Below are positions 2,607-3,930 of a stretch of 32,000 nt of DNA, in pieces. The stretch's first letter is position 1. Each line of letters opens with the position of its first letter. Where the stretch lies: positions 1-32,000 of the forward strand of contig DATGMD010000046.1 in NCBI GenBank assembly GCA_035293805.1, written 5' to 3'. Source of the stretch: Chloroflexota bacterium (GTDB lineage: Bacteria > Chloroflexota > UBA6077 > JAJPHF01). The position numbers were made by a program, and so were the translations under genes. The notes below the pieces were generated by a model. That model searched no databases. It had not been told where the DNA came from and saw nothing but the letters and a program-made list of their open reading frames with translations.

Positions 2607-2635
2607 TTGTCAATAGATTTACGCTAATCTATAAT
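2607..2635 (+). promoter_or_regulatory. sigma70-type promoter: TTGTCA (2607-2612), 17 nt spacer, TATAAT (2630-2635)
   Basis: Direct read: cTTGTCAatagatttacgctaatcTATAATacc. It sits in an AT-rich patch about 60 nt upstream of the Zn-ribbon/HNH operon. Confidence 0.55.
2613..2632. promoter_or_regulatory. perfect 7-bp inverted repeat ATAGATT-N6-AATCTAT filling the promoter spacer (candidate operator)
   Basis: atagatt (2613-2619), tacgct, aatctat (2626-2632). The right arm overlaps the -10 hexamer. Confidence 0.4.
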
Positions 2636-2694
2636 ACCGAATGGAGCGCTCCGATTTACCGTATGACCGCCCCGGTCAAGCAGAAGGAGAGTCG

Positions 2695-2937
2695 ATGGCC
2701 GAGTCCGATCTATCGCCGGCCGCCCATGCGCGGGCGCTGGCCGCCCAGCGAGCGCGCGTGCCGCATACGTGTGTGGTGTGCGGGCAGGCGTTCGTCGCGG
2801 TGCGCCAGGCCCGCTATTGCTCGAACCGGTGCGCCCAGCGAGCAGCGTACGCGCGCCATGCGGAGCAGCGCCGGGCGGACCGGCGCGCAAAATATCGGGC
2901 GCAGCGGCGCCCTGCGTCATCGCGTGGGGAGGGATAG
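2695..2937 (+). CDS. small zinc-ribbon protein (80 aa), basic C-terminus
   Basis: ORF 2641..2937, trimmed to the ATG at 2695, which follows GAAGGAGAG. Contains CVVCG...17 aa...CSNRC followed by an Arg-rich tail. Its stop lies 3 nt before the HNH gene start. Confidence 0.55.
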   Translation: MAESDLSPAAHARALAAQRARVPHTCVVCGQAFVAVRQARYCSNRCAQRAAYARHAEQRRADRRAKYRAQRRPASSRGEG

Positions 2938-2940
2938 GCT

Positions 2941-3930
2941 GTGCTAACCGATAAATCGCGGCGTAGAGCAGAGCACTGTCTTTTCTGCTCAAACCCGACT
3001 ATCGGAGAGGGCTTCGCCAGTAAGGAGCACGTGATCCCCGGGTCTATGGGAGGAACCCTTCTGACACGCGATGTGTGCAAGCCGTGTAATGGTTACTTCG
3101 GGTGTGCGGTGGACTGTGTCGCGGACGCGCCACTCCTAATCCGGCTGCGCTGTGAGGCTGGGCTTGCGCCCCGGCGCCGGCTACTCGGGGAGTATTACGA
3201 CGAGTACCTGGGCGTCTCCCTCCCCGCGTGGCAGGACTCCAATAACACGGTTGTGCCGGTCCGCCCCGTCCAGCGTGAGCGGGCGGGCAACACCGTAATC
3301 ATCAGCGGAGCGTCCAGGAGCTCGGCCGAGCGAGAGATGCGCCGCGAAGAGGAGCGGCTCAGGAACGAGGGGCTGGGCTTTGCCCCCGAGCCTATCGTGC
3401 AGATCCATGAACGGCAGGTGCCATTCCAAAGCGTGGAAGCACAGGAAAGTGTGCAGACCCTGCGCAGCCTCCTGGGTCGGGAAGCCGCGAAGATCGCCAT
3501 TGAACTCATCGGGCTGCGGGCCTCCGCGAAGGTGGCCAGCGATGCCGCGTTGGATCCAGTTCGCGACTACGCCCGGCACGGTAGCCCGCTAGACGGGGTA
3601 ACGATCGCCGTTCTCGGCCCTGAGCGCCTCTGGCTCCCGCGGGCAAAGCTCCTCCTGCGTTTCGGGCCGGAGCCCGCGCCGCCCGAGGGCGCCGTGCCGA
3701 ACCTGCCTGATCCAACCGTCCCCACGATGCAACCACCAGGTGTACCTCAACTGATGGACGTCGTACATGTGCTCGGCTTTCACCGGGATCACGACGGCGG
3801 CCACTTCGTGCTGTTGCTGTTTGGGGTAGTGAGAATCCACGTGCCGTTGCCCGAACACTTGCCGCTTCCCTGGAAGCGGGTGGAGTACTACGACCTCCTG
3901 CGCGGGCGCTCGCTCGTCCGCTACAGCTGA
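2941..3930 (+). CDS. HNH endonuclease family protein (HNH_5-like N-terminal domain plus ~250-aa uncharacterised C-terminal region)
   Basis: GTG start at 2941. The N-terminus CLFCSNPTIGEGFASKEHVIPGSMGGTLLTRDVCKPCN matches the C-x2-C...EH-x-IP...GG...C-x2-CN pattern of HNH_5-type nucleases. The 5' end has lower GC. Confidence 0.7.
   Translation: MLTDKSRRRAEHCLFCSNPTIGEGFASKEHVIPGSMGGTLLTRDVCKPCNGYFGCAVDCVADAPLLIRLRCEAGLAPRRRLLGEYYDEYLGVSLPAWQDSNNTVVPVRPVQRERAGNTVIISGASRSSAEREMRREEERLRNEGLGFAPEPIVQIHERQVPFQSVEAQESVQTLRSLLGREAAKIAIELIGLRASAKVASDAALDPVRDYARHGSPLDGVTIAVLGPERLWLPRAKLLLRFGPEPAPPEGAVPNLPDPTVPTMQPPGVPQLMDVVHVLGFHRDHDGGHFVLLLFGVVRIHVPLPEHLPLPWKRVEYYDLLRGRSLVRYS

Follow-up and report, generated by a model that had tools for sequence, protein, structure and literature searches.

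Among the described HNH nucleases, several come close to the protein considered here. PtuB of the Septu system and of the type I-A retrons (Retron-Eco7/Ec78) is, in the summary account of it, an anti-phage effector that cleaves tRNA-Tyr; it works in complex with PtuA, an ATPase of the ABC/SMC type. McrA, a Type IV restriction enzyme, is a solitary nuclease without a methyltransferase, is patchily distributed and borne on mobile elements, and has an HNH domain fused to a larger non-catalytic domain. In McrA, the HNH domain lies at the C-terminus. Plasmid-encoded members of the Pfam family HNH_5 (PF14279), such as WP_247767941.1 from Bradyrhizobium p172_1, WP_012413385.1 from Nostoc pNPUN04 and AIF65188.1 from an IncF plasmid, are known from sequence and have no assigned function. 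Here, we analyse a 329-residue protein with an HNH_5 domain from a soil bacterium of an uncultured Chloroflexota lineage. Its gene lies in a stretch of 32 000 nucleotides (bases 1-32000 of contig C46), called the window throughout, from a genome of 7.1 Mb in 99 contigs with 71.4% guanine plus cytosine (GC).

A preliminary description of the window had taken this gene and the small zinc-ribbon gene directly before it for a dedicated cassette, a candidate for anti-phage defence or addiction. The coordinates and motifs given there were found to be exact:

2695..2937, plus strand: predicted zinc-ribbon gene of the FCS/YacG type (treble clef) with a long basic helix; 80 aa, ATG at 2695, TAG at 2935-2937
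2941..3930, plus strand: HNH_5-family nuclease gene; 329 aa, GTG at 2941, 3 nt after the zinc-ribbon stop codon

Each gene has its own Shine-Dalgarno sequence, AAGGAG (2684-2689) five bases before the ATG and GGAGG (2928-2932) eight bases before the GTG. The account that we prefer, at somewhat better than an even chance, is that of a stand-alone HNH_5 cargo nuclease which is co-transcribed with a zinc-ribbon gene of a mobile element from a divergent promoter switch, and which possibly has a role in defence or in conflict between elements.

The nuclease and the wider HNH_5 family

Pfam HNH_5 matches residues 13-58 of the nuclease (38.9 bits at a cut-off of 27.5, E 8.2e-10), as had been read from the N-terminal signature. 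All 24 full-length relatives by which the close family was sampled (alignment A1) match the same model. The HNH core comprises C13, C16, E29, H30, C46, C49, N50 and D58. Invariant in 24/24 full-length relatives are E29, H30, G38, C46, C49, N50, G54, R180, K184, R208, P233, H276 and F294. In a joint alignment of 57 sequences from the close and the broader family, conservation is complete or at least 95% at C13, C16, C46, C49, E29, H30 and N50. Judged from these alignments, the Cys4 zinc site, the general-base His and the metal-binding Asn of HNH_5 nucleases are present in the window protein, which is full-length in comparison with its homologues of 300-347 aa. The protein would thus consist of an N-terminal, Cys4-stabilised His-Me finger (E29-H30 ... 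N50, D58) fused to a conserved domain of about 270 residues with the invariant K184.

The HNH protein had no match in NCBIfam, PHROGs or PADLOC (E <= 0.1), nor did the PADLOC models match the zinc-ribbon protein at E <= 0.1, and the earlier statement that the genes correspond to no named system stands. Searches of PDB sequences with the single HNH sequence and with two profiles gave nothing below E 0.08. An AlphaFold2 model built from a 5-sequence alignment reached a predicted local distance difference test (pLDDT) score of 71.5 and a predicted template modelling (pTM) score of 0.71, with a poorly modelled HNH core. Foldseek found no significant fold match for it in the PDB (best E 0.55) and one marginal match in BFVD (E 1.2e-3), to an uncharacterised HNH endonuclease of a metagenomic siphovirus. 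Two more open reading frames (ORFs) with an HNH_5 domain occur in the genome, at C10:65771-65923 (232 aa) and C51:50673-50798 (186 aa); their lengths are unrelated to that of the window protein.

The C-terminal part of about 270 residues had not been recognised in the preliminary description. It still has no Pfam model and no PDB match, but it is shared with a wider set of HNH_5 proteins. Weaker phmmer matches of about 320 aa aligned individually at the N-terminus only. When 33 of these, of similar length, were combined into an alignment (A4, the broader HNH_5 family), comparison with the close family by hhalign gave 99.9% probability and E 6.4e-33 over 263 columns (columns 8-305). Conservation among the 57 sequences is 100% for K184, 89% for R208 and H276, 86% for E188 and 82% for R180. 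By this profile comparison, the C-terminal region is a conserved domain of a wider family of full-length HNH_5 proteins and not an orphan. It showed no housekeeping match.

The broader family was followed onto plasmids with one A4 member (P0083), which retrieved 66 plasmid records, 48 of them conjugative, and none of the 50 697 phage records searched. The gene stands by itself, as one 'HNH endonuclease', in each of the six plasmid neighbourhoods read. Four to five of these six contexts contain defence-type neighbours, namely a cyclic-oligonucleotide-based anti-phage signalling system (CBASS), HTH-ImmA/IrrE, AbiE, ubiquitin-like genes of the Bil type, MNT/HEPN or a methylase. On Bradyrhizobium p172_1 (L049 4750-7008), an HTH regulator, an ImmA/IrrE peptidase and the full-length HNH_5 protein are encoded in a row, with a gap of 35 nt before the HNH gene, and the row is flanked by a CBASS operon on one side and by DUF3800 and AbiE genes on the other. 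The Acidiphilium homologue (L035) adjoins ImmA/IrrE and HTH genes, an E1/E2/multiubiquitin set, a methyltransferase and a recombinase. ThiF and MNT/HEPN genes lie near the Bacillus thuringiensis homologue, and an AAA ATPase and an N6 methylase near that of Methanothermobacter. The homologue on Escherichia coli IncF plasmids is adjacent to parMR and a gp49-type toxin pair; that of Nostoc has no telling neighbours.

The plasmid proteins share with the window protein the N-terminal core (CxxC...EH..P...GG...CxxCN...D), the length, the C-terminal domain with its R-x3-K-x3-E, R and H motifs, and the occurrence as a single gene in a mobile-element context. Beyond the HNH core they share only some 15-25% identity with it, and the window protein falls in a separate clade of few members. 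We regard the protein as new and divergent within a family that is already known but functionally uncharacterised.

Judged by this family context, the nuclease would most likely act alone, its C-terminal domain supplying substrate recognition or activation, and serve in conflicts between mobile elements or with phages. Its substrate would be either DNA, as for Type IV restriction enzymes, or a tRNA, as for PtuB. As a PtuB-type HNH nuclease cleaves tRNA, the substrate need not be DNA. Like PtuB, the window protein is an HNH_5 nuclease, but no ATPase of the PtuA type is encoded nearby, and PtuB lacks the C-terminal domain as far as this can be tested (no Foldseek match to any PDB chain). The PADLOC models for PtuB did not match the window protein at E <= 0.1; one of the 33 broader-family members matches PtuB1 at 0.0045. 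Septu itself was rejected for this locus because PtuA is missing and no ATPase gene lies within about 5 kb, where the neighbours are small orphans, a gene for a SWIM zinc-finger protein and a transposase. The resemblance to McrA extends to all the features listed for it above, except that the order of the domains is reversed, with the HNH domain N-terminal in the window protein. A nuclease is present and no methyltransferase is encoded nearby, as in Type IV systems, but for the C-terminal domain no counterpart was found among known reader domains or structures. Searches detected neither SRA nor SBD nor any other reader of modified bases, and gave no sequence or fold match.

A bolder proposal is that the proteins of about 320 aa with the R-x3-K-x3-E / R / H domain constitute an immune or anti-plasmid nuclease that is encoded by one gene, is widespread and has so far gone unrecognised, with no entry in PADLOC. 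The role of the C-terminal domain would then be that of a new sensor or specificity module, and the window copy would be a divergent Chloroflexota branch wired into a mobile-element promoter switch. This is tentative, and we rate it well below an even chance. What the analysis does point to is a family of stand-alone HNH_5 nucleases with a structurally unmatched C-terminal domain, encoded on plasmids and integrative elements, frequently in the company of defence genes, and not covered by a PADLOC model.

The locus was compared with eight public contigs from several assemblies and samples. These are 99.94-100% identical to the window stretch, with the HNH gene present wherever covered, so that there is no population variation to exploit. 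In several of them (L004-L008), with DNA identical to the window, the HNH gene is called from the ATG at 3046 (294 aa). This is a start-codon miscall, an annotation error in public assemblies that deletes the whole HNH catalytic motif. The identity among samples also bears on whether the gene is an inert, decaying passenger in a dead element with a relic promoter. The element is visibly degraded, by a transposase insertion and a resolvase fragment, and the closest HNH relative (P0004; L020/L024) has an in-frame TGA about 20 codons before the usual end of the family. The ORF in the window is, however, full-length with all invariant residues intact and a good Shine-Dalgarno sequence, and together with the near-identity of the locus in eight contigs this makes an inert remnant very unlikely.

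Distribution of the nuclease and conservation of the gene pair

Members of the close nuclease family are few and patchily distributed. An exhaustive search with phmmer through 1.8 billion cluster representatives yielded about 35 full-length relatives with 30-43% identity. The HNH protein was found in 2 of 401 Chloroflexota genomes and in 1 of 401 from Gemmatimonadota. A search of 40 close relative genomes did not find it (0/40), for which reason a housekeeping role was rejected. Ten members that were looked up fall into clusters of one or two sequences, and the sources named are metagenome-assembled genomes (MAGs) or metagenome collections. Word-indexed protein searches returned a single relative of the zinc-ribbon protein and, for the HNH protein, nothing but the query; a profile search added only one further relative (P0032, labelled Dehalococcoidia). 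A search for related loci with an 8-sequence HNH alignment gave two loci in genomes and two in metagenomes. A tblastn search of plasmids and phages with the window HNH protein gave no match, and the viral contigs of IMG/VR contain partial HNH matches only, six to the N-terminal domain and one over residues 10-236.

So sporadic a distribution is also what one would see for a free-standing homing endonuclease, that is, a selfish HNH gene inserted behind a gene of a mobile element and spreading by cutting copies of the element that lack it. The HNH gene is present in the window and absent at the equivalent position of a paralogous SWIM / zinc-ribbon module in the same genome (contig C40); it follows its neighbour at minimal distance, has no promoter of its own, and relatives lie beside debris of insertion sequences or other mobile elements. 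We nevertheless consider homing quite unlikely. The phage records contain no relative and IMG/VR little beyond the N-terminal domain, no NUMOD, IENR or HTH DNA-binding module was detected, and the long C-terminal domain with its invariant Lys is common to single genes on plasmids in defence-type neighbourhoods. With identity between the two zinc-ribbon paralogues at only 47% over 32 aa, no recent, unoccupied target site is available for comparison.

The zinc-ribbon protein has its cysteines in the arrangement C26-x2-C29 and C42-x3-C46. Its sequence matches to DUF7564, DUF2116, zf-MYND and YacG (Pfam, NCBIfam) are all below threshold; that to NCBIfam YacG reaches 19 bits against a cut-off of 79 bits. 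An AlphaFold2 model (pLDDT 76.7) consists of an N-terminal helix, a two-strand zinc knuckle and a basic, Arg-rich C-terminal helix of 28 residues. The top Foldseek matches, which are not significant (E >= 0.7), are YacG bound to gyrase (4tma, template modelling score 0.64 on the target) and the FCS finger of L3MBTL2. The protein thus resembles YacG and FCS fingers in its CxxC...(Y/F)CSxxC treble-clef zinc ribbon, and differs from them by the additional N-terminal helix and the basic C-terminal helix.

The zinc ribbon and the nuclease are not conserved together as far as the data reach, so that the proposal of a dedicated cassette is not supported. Three out of three HNH relatives with readable upstream DNA lack a zinc ribbon. 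In a Dehalococcoidia MAG (L019), a Cys-free basic ORF of 49 aa overlaps the HNH start. In a Gemmatimonadales MAG (L020), an IstB-like fragment (IS21 helper ATPase) at 2840-3001 lies upstream of the HNH gene, with no upstream ORF. In the third (L023), there is only AT-rich, promoter-like DNA with stops in all frames. The same holds in the other direction, as four zinc-ribbon relatives or paralogues occur without an HNH gene. The relative (P0003, 57% identity), on a metagenomic contig of 1.66 kb, is accompanied by a divergent SWIM gene of 149 aa and followed by a gene of 67 aa. The genome of the window itself has three zinc-ribbon paralogues. That on C40 is divergent from a SWIM gene whose product is 65% identical to the SWIM protein of the window, and no HNH gene follows. 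A second (C67) adjoins a RelE-like gene, an excisionase-like HTH gene and a large serine recombinase (0.5 kb away), and the third (C39) is a near copy of the C67 gene. As far as these data reach, the recurrent partner of the zinc ribbon is thus SWIM and not the nuclease.

These findings bear on whether the two genes form a true two-gene module, of the type II toxin-antitoxin or abortive infection kind, in which the zinc ribbon would be an antitoxin, an immunity protein or an autorepressor acting on a palindrome in the promoter and would restrain an HNH toxin. The arrangement has the look of such a module, with a gap of 3 nt, one strong shared promoter with the palindrome over its -10 box, and an upstream gene whose small, basic product has a long Arg-rich helix. 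YacG, the nearest fold though not a significant one, is a protein-binding inhibitor of an enzyme. Nevertheless, a two-gene module is unlikely. Co-conservation fails in either direction, no HNH family member carries a fused zinc ribbon of the FCS type (Rosetta-stone test), and the broader family, which occurs as single genes on plasmids, is evidently tolerated without a zinc-ribbon partner. The palindrome, moreover, is weakly non-random and is not kept in a paralogue (see below). The result removes a tempting but unsupported two-gene defence system. Of the roles suggested at the outset, defence is plausible by association only, and an addiction module is less likely.

We therefore return to the stand-alone cargo nuclease, against which the following points have to be set. 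The toxin-antitoxin-like look of the locus is one, and the Dehalococcoidia relative likewise has a small basic ORF overlapping its HNH start. The zinc-ribbon motif matches a segment within phage HNH-endonuclease PHROGs (phrog_1271, E 1e-6), which may be a hint, and is the only one, of a functional tie between the zinc ribbon and nucleases. Upstream DNA was readable for only three HNH relatives, and the evidence against co-conservation therefore comes from a small number of cases. The case for a defence role is drawn from few plasmid neighbourhoods, reached by a chain from the window protein through A1, A4 and P0083 to the plasmid proteins; hhalign with a single plasmid protein as target reaches the first 76-132 columns only. 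As the model of the nuclease is of moderate confidence and its HNH core poor, the missing PDB match is weak evidence. On the reading that we prefer, the 329-aa gene would be separate cargo, a stand-alone member of a sparsely scattered HNH_5 branch, and the zinc ribbon a gene of the element, perhaps a regulator or a protein-binding factor, rather than its dedicated partner.

The control region

Upstream of the zinc-ribbon gene, the intergenic region 2497-2694 contains the following elements:

2607..2635, plus strand: promoter; TTGTCA 2607-2612, 17-nt spacer, TATAAT 2630-2635; 11/12 consensus matches
2585..2613, minus strand: promoter toward the SWIM operon; TTGACA 2613-2608, 17 nt, TAGAAT 2590-2585; 11/12 consensus matches
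2613..2632, strand not applicable: palindrome ATAGATT-N6-AATCTAT, candidate operator; arms 2613-2619 and 2626-2632, perfect, overlapping the -10 box by 3 nt
2643..2652, strand not applicable: second perfect palindrome of 10 bp, GGAGCGCTCC, read from the sequence; just 3' of the -10 box, at about the predicted transcript start

The plus-strand promoter had been described as exceptional for a genome of 70% GC and as looking strong, and it is indeed among the best that the genome contains. It is one of 47 sites genome-wide with at least 11/12 matches to TTGACA-16/18-TATAAT, where about 1.2 are expected from base composition, and the canonical sigma-70 consensus thus appears to be used in this 71% GC genome. 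Perfect 12/12 sites occur twice elsewhere, at C30:27148 and C60:310293. The minus-strand promoter, which had been overlooked, is directed at the SWIM gene of 161 aa. Its TTGACA box and its spacing are kept in the C40 paralogue. The -35 boxes of the two promoters overlap by 5 bp, so that RNA polymerase probably occupies one promoter at a time. The region is a back-to-back promoter pair, and looks like the switch of a mobile element. The nuclease gene, with its own Shine-Dalgarno sequence and without a promoter of its own, is most likely read from the zinc-ribbon promoter as part of a two-gene transcript.

The palindrome in the spacer of the plus-strand promoter had been taken for an operator. 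The repeat is perfect and does overlap the -10 box, but its significance is limited. Of dinucleotide-shuffled versions of the 198-bp intergenic region, 13% contain an inverted repeat that is likewise perfect, with 7+7 arms and a spacer of 0-10 nt, and ATAGATT-N6-AATCTAT is not kept in the paralogous intergenic region on C40. Elsewhere in the 7.1-Mb genome the palindrome does not recur in perfect form; the sole other match with up to two mismatches is an unrelated site on contig C2. The palindrome is therefore weakly beyond chance and not statistically compelling taken by itself, whereas its location inside the promoter is suggestive, without being proof, of an operator. An ATG at 2641, 6 nt past the -10 box, is the start of a 98-aa version of the zinc-ribbon ORF, for which a leaderless start is conceivable.

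The mobile-element setting

The other side of the control region and the left end of the window are occupied by the following genes:

2011..2496, minus strand: SWIM zinc-finger protein, recurrent divergent partner of the zinc ribbon; 161 aa, ATG at 2496, Pfam SWIM E 1.6e-8
1526..2001, minus strand: orphan ORFs of 105 aa and 52 aa downstream of SWIM in the same operon; no matches in family-library scans
3..719, minus strand: 5' part of a DDE_5 transposase gene (Pfam), cut by the contig end; 452 aa in a longer public contig (L004)

The lower-GC patch next to a transposase, which had been noted before, was confirmed. GC is 65-67% over positions 2500-5500 as against 71.4% genome-wide, and the longer public contig has a resolvase fragment upstream. 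Rfam and tRNA scans found nothing. The SWIM gene is present in three copies in this genome and in 0/65 other genomes of the class.

In our reading, the window locus is what remains of a small integrative element that carries the HNH gene as cargo behind the zinc ribbon. The backbone, 2011-2937, would be the divergent control module of this decayed element, in which the SWIM operon and the zinc-ribbon gene may fire from the two near-consensus promoters of the sigma-70 type with their overlapping -35 boxes, and the palindrome in the plus-strand spacer may serve as an operator. The paralogous copies lie in comparable surroundings. On C38, the SWIM gene adjoins a large serine recombinase. In the window, orf163 and orf71 (3970-4786) converge on the HNH gene; paralogues of both (38% and 52% identity) form a pair at C38:13720-14467, about 3 kb from this SWIM copy and separated from it by a gene of the MBL fold and the large serine recombinase.

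The SWIM / zinc-ribbon pair on C40 is flanked by a tyrosine integrase on one side and a primase-like gene with an excisionase on the other, and the element resembles a satellite or an integrative mobilisable element. This element and the window locus together represent a small family of SWIM / zinc-ribbon control modules that integrative elements of this uncultured Chloroflexota lineage carry. The gene content of C40:53298-63487 (L048) comprises the tyrosine integrase, small ORFs, the divergent SWIM / zinc-ribbon pair, a membrane protein, a primase-like protein of 787 aa, an excisionase-like HTH protein and an integrase fragment.

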